Below are positions 13,670 to 38,979 of a DNA stretch of 64,000 nucleotides, piece after piece; positions within the stretch are counted from its first letter, which is position 1; every line of letters starts with the position of its first letter. The stretch is from an uncultured Lactobacillus sp. GTDB lineage: Bacteria; Bacillota; Bacilli; Lactobacillales; Lactobacillaceae. A model generated the notes under the pieces. It was given only the letters and a program-made list of their open reading frames with translations, had not been told where the DNA came from and ran no database searches. A program made the translations under genes and the position numbers. The DNA is taken from the NCBI GenBank assembly GCA_945873395.1, contig CAMCCW010000001.1, positions 22,467 to 86,466 of the forward strand, given 5' to 3'.

Positions 13670-13815
13670 TGTTGGGGTAGGAATTGCCGAGTAATTGTTC
13701 GACGGAACGGAATGTGAACGTCGAAAGGAGGTCAAATGGGCCGCTTGGTTTTTCCGCATTCACCACATTGGACACGAGTCAATGTCGTCCCTAACAAAAA
13801 AATATTTAGGGAGGT
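13670..13815 (+). promoter_or_regulatory. Probable THF (tetrahydrofolate) riboswitch with SD-sequestering helix
   Basis: The leader of a folT-type gene has a GGUAG junction and hairpin UUCGACG-GAACGGAAUGUGAA-CGUCGAA. The loop GAAUG can pseudoknot with the downstream CAUUC in CCGCAUUCACC, resembling the GGAUG/CAUCC pseudoknot of the known THF aptamer as I recall it. CCCTAA (13779-13784) can pair with TTAGGG (13805-13810), which overlaps the SD. Confidence 0.45.
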
Positions 13816-14427: not shown

Positions 14428-14716
14428 AAAGATTTCAAAAGCGATGAGAAAGAAGAGTAAATCGCCGCACTCGTTAAGTGAGTCCGTGCTAGTGTGAAAC
14501 GGACCGACCCTGGACGATTGAAAAACACTTTCTCGCAATGCCGCTGACCCAAATGATTTCAATCAGAGTAGGCTCAGCCGTCCCCGGTACGTTACCTCGC
14601 CGGTAGAACATGCACGTGTTCGAAAAGAGTGGCCTAGGCATTTGTCTAGACAACTTGGGTGGTACCGCGGAATAAAGCCTTTCGTCCCTTAGTTGATGGG
14701 GACGAAAGGCTTTTTT
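14428..14716 (+). promoter_or_regulatory. T-box leader, asparagine-specific (AAC specifier), with terminator
   Basis: Stem I base GCGATGAGAAAG/CTTTCTCGC, with AGAGTA and a distal GTCCGT...ACGGAC hairpin. Specifier loop is UUGAAAAACAC, with AAC followed by A. The canonical T-box AACTTGGGTGGTACCGCG lies at 14652-14669. The terminator is AAAGCCTTTCGTCCC...GGGGACGAAAGGCTTTTTT (14674-14716). Confidence 0.85.
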
Positions 14717-22875: not shown

Positions 22876-23337
22876 TTAAATTTGCCTGTTAAGTGAGATC
22901 ATCTCCAAGAGGCTCTGGGCCGTGCCGGCTCCCTCGTTCCCCATCTTGAGGCCGGCCCGTTGCATTGCCTGTTCAATATCATCAGTTGTCAGGATACCAA
23001 ACGTTACTGGGATTTTTCCTTGAGCGTTGAGCTTCATGATTCCGCTGGCGACATTTTGGCAGATCAGGTCATAGTGGTCCGTCTCGCCCTTAATCACAGC
23101 TCCCAGGGTCATGATTCCATCAAACTGGTCACTCGCTAGTAGCCGTTGACTGGCAAAGGGAATTTCAAAAGCTCCCGGAACATGATAAACATTGATCTGG
23201 TCTGTCGGGACCCCAAACTTCTCCAGGGTTGCCACAGCCCCTTCCATCAGCTGTCGAGTAACGGTGGCGTTGAAATCGGCTACTACAATGGCAATCTTTA
23301 GGTTCTGTTGGTCAAATTTTCCACTAAATTCGTTCAT
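22876..23337 (-). CDS. ribH: 6,7-dimethyl-8-ribityllumazine synthase
   Basis: 153 aa with the lumazine synthase pattern (IAIVVADFN...VPGAFEIP...[12 protein letters not shown]). Last gene of the rib operon. Confidence 0.92.
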
Positions 23338-23339
23338 GT

Positions 23340-24521
23340 CTATGCCTCCAAATTTAATAAGTGATGAAATTTCTGCTTCTTCGTCGCCAAATACTTATGA
23401 TCGTGAGCATTTGGCCGGATCTCCAAAGGCAGACGGCGGTTAATAGTGATCCCGTCTAAACGAAGTTGATCAATCTTATCCGGATTATTGGTCAAAAGAT
23501 CAATCGTAGTTACGCCAAGTTCCTTGAGCATCTCTGCCGCCACTTCGTATTTTCGTTCGTCAGGTGCAAAGCCCAGTTGCTCGTTGGCTTCCACGGTATC
23601 GTACCCTTCTTCCTGTAGGCGGTAGGCCTTGAGCTTATTACGCAGGCCAATTCCACGACCCTCTTGCCGCAAGTAAAGGATGATTCCTTGCCCATTCTCT
23701 TCAATTCGCCGCATGGCCTCATGAAGCTGGGGACCACAGTCACACCGTAGGGACCCGAGGACGTCCCCTGTAAAGCATTCCGAATGCAGGCGGACCATCA
23801 CCGGCGCGGCCCTGGTCAAATTCCCCTTGATCAGGGCCAGGTTGCCACCGGGGAAATAGTGTAAGCGAAAGTCCCCGTAGGTGCTGGGGAGCTTCACTTC
23901 TTCGACGGGTTTACTCACTTCGTTTTGCCGGTACTCCTGGAGTTCCTTGATGGTGATGATCGGCAAGCTATATTCGGCGGCCATTTCATGGAGCTCCGTG
24001 GACCGGGCCATCTCACCATTCGACTTCAGGATTTCGCAAATATAGGCTACCGGCTCCTCACCAGCCAGCTTAGCCAAGTCAACTGCCGCTTCAGTATGAC
24101 CGTTGCGTTCCAGGACCCCACCCGCTTTGGCAACCAATGGGAAAATGTGGCCAGGTTTGTAGAAATCCTGGTTAGTCGATTGAGGATCTGCCAGGTGGGT
24201 AATTGTTCGCCAGCGATCAAAAGCTGAGATTCCGGTCGTGGTCGAGCGGTGATCAACACTGATCGTAAAGGCCGTTCCAAACGGATCCGTATTATCCGCT
24301 GTCATCTGAGGTAGTTGGAGGCGTTTGGCCACCCGCGGTGCCATAGGGACACACATCAGTCCCCGGGCATACTTGGTCATGAAATTAACCTTCGCCGGGG
24401 TCGCCTTGCTGGCAAGGCCAATCATGTCTCCCTCTGCTTCGCGGTCCTGGTCATCCATCACGATTACCAGGCCACCATTCTTCAGCTGTGTTAATGCATC
24501 CTGGATTTTTTTAACATTCAT
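23340..24521 (-). CDS. ribBA: Bifunctional 3,4-dihydroxy-2-butanone-4-phosphate synthase / GTP cyclohydrolase II
   Basis: 393 aa with an N-terminal DHBP synthase part (DREAEGD) and C-terminal GCH II Cys motifs (HSECFTGD...CDCG). Confidence 0.92.
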
Positions 24522-26293: not shown

Positions 26294-26340
26294 CATTAAC
26301 GATATTTAAAAACACTACTAAGATTCTTAGTATATTGATT

Positions 26341-26475
26341 TCTTCTCCCATCCAGACTTTAACTGTCGGTACCAGACTCGCACTGGTTCAACCGCCAATC
26401 GTAATGATCAGCGGGTCACGGACTCCAAGATTAACTTGTTACCGTCGGTTGGGAATTTCACCCTGCCCCGAAGAA
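26341..26475 (-). promoter_or_regulatory. FMN riboswitch (RFN element) aptamer
   Basis: Minus strand: CTTCGGGGCAGGGTGAAATTCCCAACCGACGGT...AGTCCGTGACCCGC...GGTTGAACCAGTG...AGTCTGGTACCGACAGTTAAAGTCTGGATGGGAGAAG. These are the conserved RFN core blocks upstream of ribD. Confidence 0.9.
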
Positions 26476-26494
26476 ATATATTCGATTTATTTTA

Positions 26495-34979: not shown

Positions 34980-36530
34980 CTATTTTTCAATTTCATCAAT
35001 ATAATCATGGGCAATCTTACTGTCGGAAGCATACGGGGTATCCACGCCCTTGATCTTCTGGTAGGGGTCCTCCCCCTTGCCGGCCAGGACCACGATGTCG
35101 CCATCCGTGCTTCCGTCAATCGCCTGCTTAATCGCACTGGCCCGGTCCATAATAAACTGGACTGTCCCAACTTGCTGGTGGTCGATGTAAGAATCAATCT
35201 CCTTAGCAATCTTTAACGGATCCTCAAAGCCGGGATCATCGGTCGTCAAGATAATGCGCTCTGGATGTTCCTCCGTCAGGGCCTTACCCAGTCCTGGCCG
35301 CCGGGAAATCCCCTTATCACCGGCCGAACCCAGCACAACCGTTACCTTCCCGGCATTGGTCTGCCGCTTCAGGAAGGCCAGGAGACGCTTGGTGCTGGCG
35401 TAGTTATGGGCATAGTCGACGTAGACCGTCCCGTGGTGCTTCGTCGTCAGCATCTCCATCCGTCCACGGATATGAACATGGTCAAGCGTTGCGGCGGCAT
35501 CTTCTGCCTTGGCCCCCGCTAGGCCACTAGCAATCACGGCTGCTACCGCATTGCCTTCATTGTAGTCACCGGGCACACTCGTTGTATAGCGGTGATCTAA
35601 ACCAAGTTTACGAGCACGATCTGACAGGGCCGTCAACTCAAACTCGCTCTCGTGCAGGTCTTCAAGGTCGTTGCGGTACTCGAAATCTAATTGTCGATCG
35701 TCCGGTAAGTCAACCTTGGCCCCCCGCCGGGCAAACAGGTAGATGTTCTCTGGCTGGGTGGTTGCCTTAGCCGTGTAGTAAACATCCGTGAAGTGCTGCG
35801 TCTCGGCATTGATCACGCACGCGTTGGAATTGACCATCAGCTGTTCCTTGCAGTGCAGGTAATCCGCAAAGGTCGGGTGCTCGTTACGGCCGATGTGGTC
35901 TGGCGTGATGTTCAGGAAGATTCCCACATCATAGTGCAGGCCATAAACACGGTTCTTCTTGTACGCCTGGGAAGAAACCTCCATCACCAGGTGGGTCATA
36001 CCGTTATTAACGGCGGCCCGCATGTCGTGGAAGAGGTCCAGTGACTCTGGGGTGGTCAGGTCCGACTTGAACTTATCGCCGGGCTTATTGCCCAGCACCC
36101 GGTCCAGGGTCGAGAACAGGGCCACGTGATCAGCGGTCGAATGCTTGAGAATATGGTCGGCAAAGTAGGCCGTCGTGGTCTTCCCCTTCGTCCCCGTGAT
36201 GGCGATGATAAACAGGTCGTTCTGTGGGAAACCATAGAAGGCGGCGCCCAGCAGGGCCATGGCCTTCTGTTCATCCTTAACAATAATTGCCGGCAGATCC
36301 TGACCTTCCGGATACTCCTGTTCGGCGACGTAAGCGATCGCGCCCTTCTCCTTAGCCATCGCCAGGTATTTCGGCATGAAGTTCCCCTTGCAGAAGAACA
36401 GCGTCCCGTTCTTGACCCGACGCGAATCATAGGATACATCGGTTGCGGTAAAATCGGTTAAATTGCGGACGTGATCCAGTAAATGGTGCTCACGTAATAA
36501 CGCTAGCATTGGCGTAACATGCAATTCCAT
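34980..36530 (-). CDS. murE: UDP-N-acetylmuramoyl-L-alanyl-D-glutamate--L-lysine ligase
   Basis: 516 aa with the Mur ligase P-loop TGTKGKTT and overall MurE architecture. The Lys-type call is inferred from the taxon. Confidence 0.9.
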   Translation of the reverse strand: MELHVTPMLALLREHHLLDHVRNLTDFTATDVSYDSRRVKNGTLFFCKGNFMPKYLAMAKEKGAIAYVAEQEYPEGQDLPAIIVKDEQKAMALLGAAFYGFPQNDLFIIAITGTKGKTTTAYFADHILKHSTADHVALFSTLDRVLGNKPGDKFKSDLTTPESLDLFHDMRAAVNNGMTHLVMEVSSQAYKKNRVYGLHYDVGIFLNITPDHIGRNEHPTFADYLHCKEQLMVNSNACVINAETQHFTDVYYTAKATTQPENIYLFARRGAKVDLPDDRQLDFEYRNDLEDLHESEFELTALSDRARKLGLDHRYTTSVPGDYNEGNAVAAVIASGLAGAKAEDAAATLDHVHIRGRMEMLTTKHHGTVYVDYAHNYASTKRLLAFLKRQTNAGKVTVVLGSAGDKGISRRPGLGKALTEEHPERIILTTDDPGFEDPLKIAKEIDSYIDHQQVGTVQFIMDRASAIKQAIDGSTDGDIVVLAGKGEDPYQKIKGVDTPYASDSKIAHDYIDEIEK

Positions 36531-36628
36531 TTGTAATTGACCCCTCTTATTTTTCTCTCTTAAAAGTCTATTATTTCATTTTTTAGGCTAAATGTGAATA
36601 TATGGCGGTCAATCGTCATGAATTTAAC

Positions 36629-36669
36629 ATAAATAAAAGCTAGCCCACAATCTTTCATGAGCTAGCTTG
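36629..36669 (-). terminator. Intrinsic terminator about 100 nt upstream of the murE start
   Basis: Minus strand: AAGCTAGCTCA-tgaaagattg-TGGGCTAGCTT (11 bp, one G-U) followed by TTATTTAT. Confidence 0.65.
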
Positions 36670-36700
36670 CATAATTATTTAGTTTTGGCATTTTATTTAA

Positions 36701-36952
36701 TTTTATATCCGAACCTAGTGACCAATCAATTCGAAGCCCATTGGTATCACAAACCTTTCGTCTTCCTTAAGGTCCACAACCCTTAGCTTACTGCCCGAAT
36801 CATCTTCGTCATGGTACTCATCTCACAATTAAGAAACCTTAGTGACTTACCTCAACAAAATTGCCCATTGGTATCACTCCGTTCTCTCAATCCTAAGCGA
36901 CGGAAACGTTAACTTACTGCTCGAATCATCCTTACCATTGGAATCACCTCAC
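36701..36952 (-). repeat. Two diverged tandem 126-nt units (36952-36827 and 36826-36701), each with two mini-ORFs and two hairpins
   Basis: Direct alignment of the two units shows conserved islands ATGATTCGRGCAGTAAGYTAA and GTGATACCAATGGGC. The mini-ORFs are MVRMIRAVS (36938-36909), MGNFVEVSH (36868-36839), MTKMIRAVS (36812-36783) and MGFELIGH (36741-36715). Confidence 0.8.
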
Positions 36953-36977
36953 TAGGTATTACCTTTTCTACACTTAT

Positions 36978-37006
36978 AGTATAGCACGTCTTGTTAGCAC
37001 TTTCAA
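36978..37006 (-). promoter_or_regulatory. Near-consensus sigma-A promoter driving the tandem-repeat region
   Basis: Minus strand: TTGAAA (37006-37001), 17-nt spacer, TATACT (36983-36978). Confidence 0.6.
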
Positions 37007-37013
37007 CCATTGG

Positions 37014-37052
37014 AAAATAAAATCACCCGTCCAGTGCGACAGGTGATTTTAT
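37014..37052 (-). terminator. asnB intrinsic terminator (bidirectional in shape)
   Basis: AAAATCACC-c-GTC...GAC-a-GGTGATTTT stem. On the minus strand it is followed by TTTTATTTT. Confidence 0.8.
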
Positions 37053-37056
37053 TGAC

Positions 37057-38979
37057 CTATGCCTCGGCAGTAGCAGTCTGCTTAGCGCGGTCGATCCCGG
37101 ATTCATCCGGCTTGAATTTATCAATAAAGTACAGCTTGTACCAAACGAGGAAGGTGTAGACCGTCCAGATCTTCCGCCGGCCATCGATCTTACCGTTGAA
37201 GTTATCATCGGCTAGTTTCAACAGCTTGTCCTGGTCGAAGAATTCGCTGACGAAGTCCTGTTCGAACATCTCACGAACGATCTCGTAGTACTTCTTCTCC
37301 CGCAGCCATTCACGGACTGGGGTTGGGAAACCAAGCTTAGGACGAGTAGCCCATTCTTCTGGCAGGTGCCGGTTGGCCGCCATCCGGAATGCCCACTTAG
37401 TCCCCTTGTAGTTAAAGAGGTAGTTGGTTGGCGTGGTTTCCGCCACCTTCATAACCTCTTTATCCAGCAGTGGAACCCGAATTTCAACTGAGTTAGCCAT
37501 ACTCATCTTGTCGGCCTTCAGGCAAATATCCCCAGGCATGAAGCGGTGCAAGTCCACGTATTGTTTCTTGGCCACTTCATTCATATCCTTCTTCTCGTCA
37601 CACTTGTCGTAAAGTGGCTTGAGGAGGTCGGTGATGGATGGACCGTTTTGGTAATCCGGCTTCAGGTATTCGTTGGCTTCGGTTGGGCTGAAAATGTAGG
37701 CCTGACCGATGAAGGTGTCGCGGGCTGGGGCCAGGTTCCGGTAAAGGTGTTCGGAACCGTGGAACTGCTTGCCTTCCAGCCACTTACCCAACTTGTACCG
37801 CTTTTCCTTTGGCAACTTCTTCAGTTGGTCAGTGATCCACCGCAGGAACTTAATCTTGGTGTTGAAACCGTAGGCCGTGTAACCAGCAAAGAGCTCATCG
37901 GCCCCTTCACCAGACAGGAGGGCCTTGTAGCCATTATCCTTAGCCAGCTTGTTCAGGAAGTAGAGCGGCACAACGGATGGGTTGGAGTCTGGTTCGTCCA
38001 AGTAATACTGGATCAGTGGGAAGGTCTTGAAGGCCTCCTCATCCGTCAACAGCTTGTCAGTGTTCTTCAACTTCAACTTGGCTGCCAGTTCACGGGCCTG
38101 CTTAGTTTCATCGTAACCACTGTCAAAACCGATGGAGAAGGTGTTGTTTGGCCGCATCAAGGCCGTTACCAAACTGGAGTCCACCCCAGCCGACAGGAAG
38201 GAACCAACCTTGATTCCCTTATCCGCAAAGGTGTGGGCCTTAACAGAGTCCTTAACCACGTTGTCGATGTTGTCAACGGCCTGGTCAAAGGTCTCATCCT
38301 TTGGTTCGAAGTCCTCGTCCCAGTACTGGGTCATCTCAAACTTCCCGTCCTTGTAGGTGAAGTAGTGGGCCTCTGGCAGGCGGTAAACACCCTTGAAGAA
38401 GGTTTCCTGGGTGACGTTGTACTGGAAAGTCATGTAAGACTTGAGGGCCCGCTTGTTCAACTCCATCTTGAAGTTCGGGTGGTCCAAGAAGGCCTTGATC
38501 TCAGAACCAACAAAGAAGGTCCCGTTCATCTTAGCGTAGTAGAGCGGCTTAATCCCAAAGTGGTCACGAGCACCGAACATTTCCTTCGTCTTCTTGTCCC
38601 AGATGATGAAGCCAAACATTCCCCGGAGCTTGTTGACAATGCCCTTGCCCCACTGTTCGTAACCGTGCAGGATAACCTCGGTGTCGGCATGGGTCTTGAA
38701 GGTGTGTCCGTCCTTGATTAATTCTTCACGCAGTTCTTCAAAGTTGTAGATTTCTCCATTGAATTCGATGATCTTGGAGCCATCCTCGTTAAAGATTGGC
38801 TGGTTACCGGACTTAACATCGACAAAGCTGAGTCGCCGGAAGCCAAGGGCGACATCATCATCCACGTACTGGCCCTCGGCATCGGGTCCCCGGTGAATGA
38901 TCCGGTCTTTCATTTTTTTGATTAATTGGTCCTTAATTTGTGGTTTTTCATTATCAACAAATGCAACAATCCCACACAT
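37057..38979 (-). CDS. asnB: Asparagine synthase (glutamine-hydrolysing), long AsnB/AsnH type
   Basis: 640 aa with the Ntn amidotransferase start MCGI and a PP-loop SAGVDSS. Confidence 0.9.
   Translation of the reverse strand: MCGIVAFVDNEKPQIKDQLIKKMKDRIIHRGPDAEGQYVDDDVALGFRRLSFVDVKSGNQPIFNEDGSKIIEFNGEIYNFEELREELIKDGHTFKTHADTEVILHGYEQWGKGIVNKLRGMFGFIIWDKKTKEMFGARDHFGIKPLYYAKMNGTFFVGSEIKAFLDHPNFKMELNKRALKSYMTFQYNVTQETFFKGVYRLPEAHYFTYKDGKFEMTQYWDEDFEPKDETFDQAVDNIDNVVKDSVKAHTFADKGIKVGSFLSAGVDSSLVTALMRPNNTFSIGFDSGYDETKQARELAAKLKLKNTDKLLTDEEAFKTFPLIQYYLDEPDSNPSVVPLYFLNKLAKDNGYKALLSGEGADELFAGYTAYGFNTKIKFLRWITDQLKKLPKEKRYKLGKWLEGKQFHGSEHLYRNLAPARDTFIGQAYIFSPTEANEYLKPDYQNGPSITDLLKPLYDKCDEKKDMNEVAKKQYVDLHRFMPGDICLKADKMSMANSVEIRVPLLDKEVMKVAETTPTNYLFNYKGTKWAFRMAANRHLPEEWATRPKLGFPTPVREWLREKKYYEIVREMFEQDFVSEFFDQDKLLKLADDNFNGKIDGRRKIWTVYTFLVWYKLYFIDKFKPDESGIDRAKQTATAEA

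Follow-up and report, generated by a model that had tools for sequence, protein, structure and literature searches.

A predicted stand-alone RNA with tandem micro-open reading frames between asnB and murE of an uncultured Lactobacillus

What kind of element occupies the gap between asnB and murE in the genome of an uncultured Lactobacillus sp.? The window, i.e., the whole 64,000-nucleotide (nt) stretch that was analysed (GenBank assembly GCA_945873395.1, contig CAMCCW010000001.1, positions 22,467 to 86,466), contains in this gap a minus-strand segment, called the module below, with a predicted promoter, two tandem 126-nt units carrying very short open reading frames (ORFs), and a predicted terminator. 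The first-pass annotation, made from the letters of the DNA, had offered three options: a small RNA (sRNA) of ~340 nt, a leader or attenuator controlling murE, or a tiny-peptide operon. The discrete ~340-nt transcript and the tiny ORFs survive the present analysis, whereas the murE leader fails. The best reading, to which we give about an even chance, is a stand-alone RNA whose micro-ORFs engage ribosomes. Judged from comparisons of the sequence with its relatives, the segment is a small gene complete in itself, placed by insertion after the asnB terminator and before the murE promoter, and the module does not regulate murE in cis. Its kind is known, namely lineage-specific small RNAs with small ORFs, and it belongs to no described family.

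The insertion and its borders

The flanking ORFs encode an asparagine-synthase-type amidotransferase (asnB, 37057-38979) and a Mur ligase with Mur ligase domains (murE, 34980-36530), within the gene order jag/khpB, mnmE, mnmG, asnB, murE, and signal peptidase. The murE protein, used as query against one genome per species, gave 80 loci, all of them from Lactobacillaceae, and the closest murE matches belong to Limosilactobacillus (95-96% identity). In most of these loci, asnB lies directly upstream of murE, and the gap measures ~70-190 nt. Gaps of 530-660 nt were found only in the loci numbered L001, L002 (L. galli), L003, L005, and L027 (L. frumenti), and among the 80 loci the same five are the only ones with islands (a) and (b), two stretches shared by the units, or with any nhmmer match to the segment. 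A further carrier, the frumenti-like L122, was reached through murE homologues. The extra ~380 nt are therefore carried by the window, by these six loci, and by the L. frumenti metagenome contig L084. The module is missing from ~70 of the 80 asnB-murE loci and from the close relatives L115, L119, L121, and L123. By murE, non-carriers can be as close to carriers or closer (L115, 88% to the window; L121, 87% to L027).

In module-free Limosilactobacillus, the spacer consists of the asnB stop, a terminator, ATTCACWTTT...TGAAATAAT, and murE, which corresponds to the murE promoter and 5' untranslated region (UTR) of the window. Since module-free spacers share this promoter and UTR, the segment is an insertion complete in itself, with the asnB terminator on one side and the murE promoter on the other. 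The patchy distribution points to losses or to lateral replacement by recombination, and for the same reason a single vertical gain in one clade was rejected. The murE promoter itself (36570-36598; TTCACA, 17-nt spacer, AATAAT, TG upstream), which marks the boundary and is outside the module, lies between the module terminator and the murE ATG and is conserved in all Limosilactobacillus loci, module-bearing or module-free. The earlier statement that no convincing promoter exists between terminator and murE was wrong. An insertion upstream of murE's own promoter also removes the main argument for a murE leader.

The predicted promoter of the module (36978-37006) combines a -35 element TTGAAA, a 17-nt spacer, and a TG-extended -10 element TATACT, exactly as first annotated, and a consensus scan confirmed it. 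It is 71-89% identical between the window and its orthologues and was re-found as TTGTAA-17-TATAAT with TG in L027 and as TTGTAA-17-TATATT with TG in L005. With the start position inferred from the -10 element, the predicted 5' leader (GUGUAGAAAAGGUAAUACCU...) occupies 36953-36972; it shows 85-100% identity across five orthologues and is invariant at 19 of 25 positions in seven sequences. Unit 1 (36827-36952) consists of a Shine-Dalgarno (SD) box A1, ORF A1, a spacer hairpin, SD box B1, and ORF B1, and unit 2 (36701-36826) is its diverged duplicate. An AT-rich linker (36670-36700) leads from unit 2 to the predicted intrinsic terminator (36629-36669), whose stem (36668-36637) is followed by UUUUAUUUAU. 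An inverted-repeat finder gave arms of 11 nt (36637-36647 and 36658-36668), and the consensus scan found the hairpin followed by TTATTTATGT, so the hairpin with T-run described at first was found again. L005 has a related hairpin in this place, and L027 and L122 have an unrelated hairpin with a T-run. The terminator would thus have kept its function across orthologues and not its sequence. As predicted, a strong sigma-A promoter with an extended -10 element would produce a discrete RNA of ~340 nt with a generic intrinsic terminator at its end.

The internal duplication is real, as judged from the comparison with shuffled sequences. The units share ~62% identity over 78 identical columns, and their global alignment scores 27 as opposed to -23 +/- 5 in 1000 dinucleotide-preserving shuffles (z = 9.9), which bears out the two diverged 126-nt units of the first-pass annotation. 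Tandem Repeats Finder made no call on them because they are too diverged. Both islands described earlier were recovered as well. Island (a) occurs exactly twice in the window (0.01 expected), and the 15-mer of island (b) has two exact occurrences, with a third, diverged copy (36947-36933) at the start of unit 1. Both units contain an invariant 15-nt core, AUGAUUCGRGCAGUA, at 36929-36915 (A1) and 36803-36789 (A2). The 15-mer GTGATACCAATGGGC in unrelated phage contigs is a plain ribosome-binding site (RBS) with the ATG of long genes.

Conservation of initiation boxes and short frames

The body of the module is far better conserved than its surroundings. Identities to the window, always in the order L001, L002, L003, L005, and L027, are 0.99, 0.94, 0.98, 0.77, and 0.79 for unit 1 and 0.97, 0.95, 0.94, 0.77, and 0.70 for unit 2. 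At fourfold-degenerate sites they are 0.61, 0.64, 0.51, 0.33, and 0.30 in murE and 0.75, 0.77, 0.68, 0.49, and 0.43 in asnB, and the asnB terminator gives 0.89, 0.63, 0.70, 0.41, and 0.32. In other words, the units stand at 94-99% compared with 51-77% at neutral sites in L001-L003 and at 70-79% compared with 30-49% in L005 and L027; unit 1 alone spans 94-99% in the former and 77-79% in the latter. In the gene quarters nearest to the module, fourfold identity is 0.58-0.84, so local homogenisation does not explain the excess. The earlier impression that the locus is selected and not random therefore holds, with units far above fourfold-site identity in five orthologous loci.

Conservation has clear limits along the segment. 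In L027, the AT-rich linker (0.42, i.e., 42% and at neutral level) and the terminator (0.36) are poorly conserved in comparison with the units (0.70-0.79). Because the body is conserved, the promoter is kept, and the terminator of L027 has been replaced, the selected unit would comprise the promoter, the ~270-nt body, and any terminator. As far as sequence comparison can tell, such a combination of promoter, body, and exchangeable terminator marks a discrete RNA rather than a sensor-coupled attenuator. The functional body is accordingly placed in the ~270-nt 5' part, namely the leader and the internally duplicated unit. Within it, conservation falls on four translation-initiation boxes and, in each unit, on an invariant 15-nt core, not on helices. 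In seven sequences, the four stretches from SD to AUG are 73-93% invariant and no position of the MIRAV cores varies (30 of 30 invariant), compared with 20-43% for the spacers and the bodies of the B frames.

Each box consists of an extended SD that can pair with the 16S 3' end and of an AUG 4-6 nt further on. Energies of SD/anti-SD duplexes, computed with the Bacillota consensus 16S 3' end taken from general knowledge, were ranked among the 2017 ATGs of the window. Box A1 (GAGGUGAUUCCA) and ORF A1 (36909-36950; ATG at 36938, TAA at 36911-36909; MVRMIRAVS) have a duplex of -15.9 kcal/mol, which corresponds to the 0.1 percentile. Box B1 (GGAGUGAUACCA) and ORF B1 (36839-36880; ATG at 36868; MGNFVEVSH) follow with -12.4 kcal/mol (2.5 percentile). 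In unit 2, ORF A2 (36783-36824; ATG at 36812, or in frame at 36821; MTKMIRAVS) stands behind the weak box GAGAUGAGUACC, and box B2 (AAAGGUUUGUGAUACCA) with ORF B2 (36715-36758; ATG at 36741; MGFELIGH) reaches -13.0 kcal/mol (1.5 percentile). The duplexes of A1, B1, and B2 are stronger than those of murE and asnB (-10.9 kcal/mol), and the energies of the boxes are identical across all orthologues. All mini-ORF coordinates of the first-pass annotation were correct; the GAGGTG that it saw upstream of the A1 ATG is present, at a spacing of 6 nt instead of 7 nt.

The frames keep their lengths to different degrees. ORF A1 has nine codons in 7/7 orthologues (M[VI][RK]MIRAV[SR]) and ORF A2 has nine in all orthologues (M[TM]KMIRAV[SRI], stop TAA or TGA), so the A frames have nine codons in 14/14 copies. 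ORF B1 appears in orthologues as MGNCVEVSH, MGSFV, MGDIV, or MGEIV, with TAA or TGA as stop or with an earlier TAG. ORF B2 has eight codons in 7/7 orthologues; in L027 it reads MGLEVDEC with TGA, and its length is kept in L027 and L122 although the last four codons are wholly different. Stop codons change from TAA to TGA or from TAG to TGA across orthologues, and none is lost. In the frumenti pair, both differences in B1 fall on third codon positions (GGA/GGG and GAT/GAG). The stop-preserving pattern is suggestive, not decisive. Two other coding proposals were dropped: a rare-arginine-codon sensor (CGG, at 51%, is used for Arg more often than any other codon here), and a sense ORF of 32 amino acids across the terminator, which is frameshifted in L001.

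The description of the locus as a structured RNA found little support. No family was recognised in a scan of the region against Rfam 15 (best 14-22 bits, thresholds 44-142, E = 1.4-10), in agreement with the earlier statement that no known RNA motif could be seen, and the versions in L027 and in L081, the plasmid locus discussed below, gave nothing at E <= 1. ARAGORN reported no tRNA-like gene. Single-sequence folding gave z-scores of -2.3 for the whole RNA and of -0.7 and -0.3 for the units, and RNAalifold on 12 unit copies gave -1.86 kcal/mol, i.e., essentially no consensus structure. The four hairpins proposed earlier can be drawn as described and are 86% paired over seven orthologues (H1a/H1b and H2a/H2b, 69-100% of cells). 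They do differ between the two paralogous units, as had been noted; among the seven orthologues, by contrast, 0/27 pairs are altered on both sides, and column shuffles do equally well. Two longer pairings were rejected. The closing helix of the 5' and 3' ends (ACCUAGUGA/UCACUAGGU) is perfect in the window group and weak in L005, L027, and L122, and the pairing of island (a) with the B2 frame in the minimum-free-energy fold of unit 2 is not kept in L002, L005, and L027 and is missing from unit 1.

The RNA is poor in C (A 83, G 79, U 76, C 34). Over 36600-37050, the GC content is 0.34-0.42 compared with 0.51 for the whole window, and the GC skew is -0.30 to -0.34 on the plus strand, which places G well above C on the RNA strand. 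Either a foreign origin or an unstructured, purine-rich RNA would fit both features.

Possible action of the RNA and rival explanations

How could such an RNA work? We propose that it acts by engaging ribosomes: 30S subunits would load at A1, B1, and B2, and very short frames (A always 9 codons, B 5-9, with stop positions kept) would be translated, and ribosome occupancy of the RNA would thereby be precisely set. Like leader or arrest ORFs, the A frames (M-x-K/R-MIRAV-x) would be constrained both in peptide frame and in nucleotides. In unit 1, 7-11 nt separate the A1 stop from the 5' arm of a predicted hairpin, and the 3' arm of this hairpin overlaps the B1 SD; unit 2 is laid out in the same way. 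With the SD of B placed in a local hairpin shortly after the A stop, translating A could gate B by translational coupling or attenuation. Candidate outputs include micropeptides, a signal of translation status, and RNA stability or trans-action controlled by ribosome loading.

If these predictions hold, strong purifying selection maintains, in Limosilactobacillus species from gut, food, and vagina, a small gene that is restricted to their lineage and has so far gone uncharacterised. The parts of it that are conserved would be ribosome-binding sites and frames of 5-9 codons, a class of element that is missed by genome annotation and RNA-family scans. It would offer a compact test case for whether very short ORFs on stand-alone RNAs function through the act of translation, and for the origin of synonymous-site constraint in such frames. 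It also corrects the tempting misreading of the module as a controller of the cell-wall gene murE.

Several points weigh against translation as the function of the RNA. The promoter, the transcription start, the use of the terminator, and translation are all predictions, and the 16S 3' end behind the SD energies is a Bacillota consensus, not one read from this genome. Box A2 is weak (-5.7 kcal/mol). The sequences of the B peptides vary (F to C, E to K), as do their lengths (5-9 codons in the module, 3-5 on the L. crispatus plasmid), which makes a peptide-level function of the B frames unlikely. Approximately four stop-codon changes, all of them stop-preserving, correspond to p ~0.01-0.04 by a rough estimate from few independent substitutions, and the carriers form only three well-separated lineages. 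Finally, none of the eight synonymous sites in the two MIRAV cores varies, though neutral identity is 0.3-0.5; for this we infer a chance expectation of <1e-4. Selection on the peptide alone is therefore insufficient for island (a), and a ligand at the RNA or DNA level is needed in addition or instead.

One way to satisfy this demand is a non-coding sRNA acting in trans, which we regard as possible, though doubtful. Binding sites would be provided by the G-rich single-stranded boxes (three per unit: GAGGUGAUUCC, AGGAUGAUUCG, and GGAGUGAUACC) and by the invariant AUGAUUCGRGCAGUA core. Their partner could be a C/U-rich RNA, for which the module would serve as sponge or decoy as RosA or RsaI do, or the 16S anti-SD, or an RNA-binding protein, and the mini-ORFs would be by-products of SD/AUG mimicry. 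The zero synonymous change in island (a), a constraint at the nucleotide level, speaks for this, and so do the unconserved B peptides, the module's own promoter and terminator, and the 79 G compared with 34 C without a stable conserved fold, as expected of an RNA that presents single-stranded motifs. Yet every box keeps an AUG at optimal spacing, and frame lengths and stops are kept across lineages (B2 of L027 differs yet ends at codon 9), which pure binding sites would not predict. Moreover, no partner was identified, the 64-kb window contains no complementary site, and GGA motifs of the CsrA type are unconserved in L005 and L027. Constraint at synonymous sites would also fit DNA boxes 126 bp apart (12 helical turns) to which a DNA-binding protein attaches, such as one connected with the chromosome-origin region close by; jag, mnmE, and mnmG are neighbours of the locus, and the repeat spacing of 126-127 bp preserves helical phase. 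This is the least probable of the explanations and highly unlikely. The boxes are not palindromic, they match no DnaA-box or parS consensus known to us, they are bracketed exactly by a conserved promoter and terminator, and they are strand-specific SD/AUG sequences of top-percentile strength, in a module missing from most relatives. A more specific idea about translation, which we consider improbable, is that of a free-standing tandem ribosome-arrest sensor. The M-x-K/R-MIRAV-x frames would sense a small molecule, possibly a drug targeting the peptidyl-transferase centre or the exit tunnel, as nascent peptide and mRNA. When Val8 occupies the P site, Ala is penultimate, a context preferred by such drugs. 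Stalling would open the SD-sequestering hairpin and so allow the MG... frames of an abundantly expressed RNA to be translated. Their output would be exerted in trans, for example through cis-acting mini-peptides for resistance, of the pentapeptide type (MGSFV, MGDIV, MGEIV, MGIVN), or through sequestration of tRNA or ribosomes. If true, the architecture would be that of an attenuator to which no regulated gene is coupled.

Two further explanations dispense with a stand-alone function. A non-functional relic, namely a fragment of mobile or plasmid DNA such as a duplicated promoter-RBS-start piece recently spread by recombination, would explain the patchiness among close species, where L115 and L121 lack the module though their murE is nearer to carriers than that of other carriers; the GC content of ~0.34-0.42 compared with 0.51; and a sole outside relative on a plasmid beside an insertion sequence (IS) element. 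It is nonetheless quite unlikely. The units of the closest carriers stand at 0.94-0.99, compared with 0.58-0.84 at nearby fourfold sites, and also above the adjacent asnB terminator; the conservation is patterned, with invariant boxes and core and free spacers, also between lineages whose synonymous sites are almost saturated; promoter and terminator are kept in function although the terminator sequences differ; terminal inverted repeats are lacking; and searches found neither further copies in the window and the 1.27 Mb of fetched loci nor matches in phages or on other plasmids. Still less probable is a cis-acting leader, attenuator, or read-through promoter module that tunes murE or the 3' end of asnB. 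The module is co-oriented with murE and immediately upstream of it, its terminator lies ~100 nt before the murE ATG, and short leader-type ORFs followed by hairpins resemble attenuators. Against this, murE has its own promoter downstream of the terminator, kept in relatives with or without the module, and most species have asnB-murE without it. No antiterminator alternative is visible, nor was any upstream complement to the 5' arm of the terminator seen in the sequence. The linker and the terminator evolve at the neutral rate and have been replaced in L. frumenti, where the body is conserved and a terminator is still present, which indicates insulation from murE and not coupling. The relative in L. 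crispatus is not beside murE.

Known systems, distant relatives, and the surrounding spacer

Does the module belong to a class already described? In its proposed working, it is most like the leaders of erm/cat-type translational attenuation (ErmCL, ErmAL1/2, CatA86L), in which a short SD-led ORF precedes a hairpin that covers the next SD, in tandem in ermA; this is an analogy, and membership fails. Shared features would be a leader ORF of ~9 codons behind a strong SD (A1, predicted -15.9 kcal/mol, 9 codons in 7/7), a candidate hairpin over the SD of the next frame, the tandem arrangement, and the constraint on the leader ORF in both nucleotides and frame. In contrast to these leaders, the transcript of the module contains no resistance gene or other long gene, the 'regulated' frame itself has 5-9 codons, a terminator and the independent murE promoter follow, and no covariation is seen in the hairpins. 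No sequence similarity to erm/cat leaders was found in the plasmid collection.

Dual-function RNAs such as SR1/SR1P and RNAIII/hld encode one peptide of 26-39 amino acids and have mapped base-pairing regions and stable stem-loops. The module resembles them as a stand-alone unit of a few hundred nt from promoter to terminator, with small (here predicted) frames and restriction to one lineage, and it differs in its four frames of 5-9 codons, its lack of a conserved fold, and the lack of a known target. CsrB/RsmZ, RosA, and RsaI are sponge or decoy RNAs with repeated SD-like motifs or G-tracts. Several purine-rich SD-like motifs on one small RNA and internal duplication are common to them and to the module. 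Unlike in CsrB/RsmZ, each motif of the module precedes an AUG and a kept frame, and GGA-in-loop motifs are unconserved. A sponge of the CsrB/RsmZ type was rejected, as AAGGAUGA and UUAGGA of the window become AAAGAUGA or vanish in L005 and L027; to our knowledge, Lactobacillaceae mostly lack CsrA and Hfq.

A tandem riboswitch of the glycine type would likewise show two similar units (~126 nt in the module), then an intrinsic terminator, and a biosynthetic gene downstream. In the module, however, the terminator stands behind an unconserved linker and is uncoupled from the units, and murE has its own promoter; without an Rfam match, a consensus fold beyond -1.86 kcal/mol, or a compensatory pair among 27, a riboswitch was rejected. 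ToxI arrays are similar in their compact order of promoter, tandem direct repeats, and terminator, and the only outside relative of the module is on a plasmid. Their repeats of ~36 nt in 2-5.5 copies differ from two repeats of 126 nt, and a type III toxin-antitoxin system was rejected because no toxin gene follows (murE here, a hypothetical protein of 48 amino acids on the plasmid). A type I system was rejected as well, with sense frames of <=9 codons only and antisense ORFs that vary in frame and length between species. The same holds for a miniature inverted-repeat transposable element or an IS: no terminal inverted repeats bracket the insert, which is single-copy in the window and the 1.27 Mb of loci and always at asnB-murE. 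An antisense protein was also considered. The ORF P0121 of 126 amino acids (L027, 2494-2874, minus strand) is broken in the window and in L122, and the only sequence found for it among 5.8 billion proteins was the L. frumenti ORF itself. P0121, which is called as a protein in L. frumenti assemblies, is a spurious call that overlaps the module.

Searches for copies elsewhere returned little. The count of a single copy in the window and the fetched loci comes from an nhmmer profile scan of these sequences, not of whole genomes, and in L. frumenti assemblies the module is always at asnB-murE. A metagenome pattern scan for island (a), a gap, and island (b) found one L. frumenti contig; five other matches, on contigs of 58-68% GC without further similarity, are read as chance. 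BLAST of the module against phages gave no match, and pattern scans of viral contigs gave only chance or generic RBS matches. Literature searches found nothing on this locus. Among 72,556 plasmids, BLAST found one local match, in L. crispatus NZ_CP083394. This partial relative (23043-23428; L081 1355-1740) lies just beyond the end of a copy of the ISLcr2 transposase and does not adjoin murE; the downstream gene encodes the 48-amino-acid hypothetical protein, which by eye resembles an antitoxin of the RelB/DinJ type. The relative matches the B2 region exactly over 24 nt (GAAAGGTTTGTGATACCAATGGGC; Smith-Waterman score 56, shuffle maximum 35) and shares the -10/+1 stretch GTGCTATAYTATRAGTGTA and the GAGGTGAGTTCCGATGGGC box. 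It has a TG-extended -10 element, strong SD boxes with MGT* (-15.2 kcal/mol) and MGIVN* (-13.4 kcal/mol), a third box, GUGAUAUUAAUG, that opens a frame of 17 codons, and its own 14-bp terminal (terminator) hairpin. BLAST with the plasmid version of the module matched only the IS end elsewhere.

The spacer itself shows further changes. In L003, a metagenome-assembled genome, an extra insertion of ~130 nt with its own GC-rich hairpin (GGGACTGGAGAAG...CTTCTCCAGTCCC) stands right after the module terminator (about 2775-2905; about columns 490-615 of alignment A2), and the asnB-murE spacer looks like a hot spot for small insertions. In Ligilactobacillus hayakitensis (L042, about 2565-2900), the gap of 616 nt contains an ordinary ORF of ~110 codons (MELKVTTKAAQKLSQQ...) that is unrelated to the module. 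In L004 and L117, which are L. kribbianus-like, a pterin-binding (folP-like) gene and not asnB precedes murE; the murE promoter is kept, and the synteny break falls exactly at the spacer. The palindrome TTCCCCGGGAAAT directly follows the module terminator in L027 (about 2885-2900) and L122 (about 1385-1400), i.e., in the frumenti lineage only.

Within the window, a 10-nt exact repeat on the minus strand, TTCCAATGGT, occurs just upstream of the -35 element (37006-37015) and in the A1 box (36934-36943); it is probably due to chance, as it is found in the window sequence only and is missing from orthologues. The scan of the whole window at Rfam gathering thresholds reported cis-regulatory RNAs only elsewhere, namely a flavin mononucleotide (FMN) riboswitch (26336-26479, minus strand, 119.9 bits), a T-box leader (14435-14692, plus strand, 109 bits), and a tetrahydrofolate (THF) riboswitch (13671-13767, plus strand, 50.7 bits).

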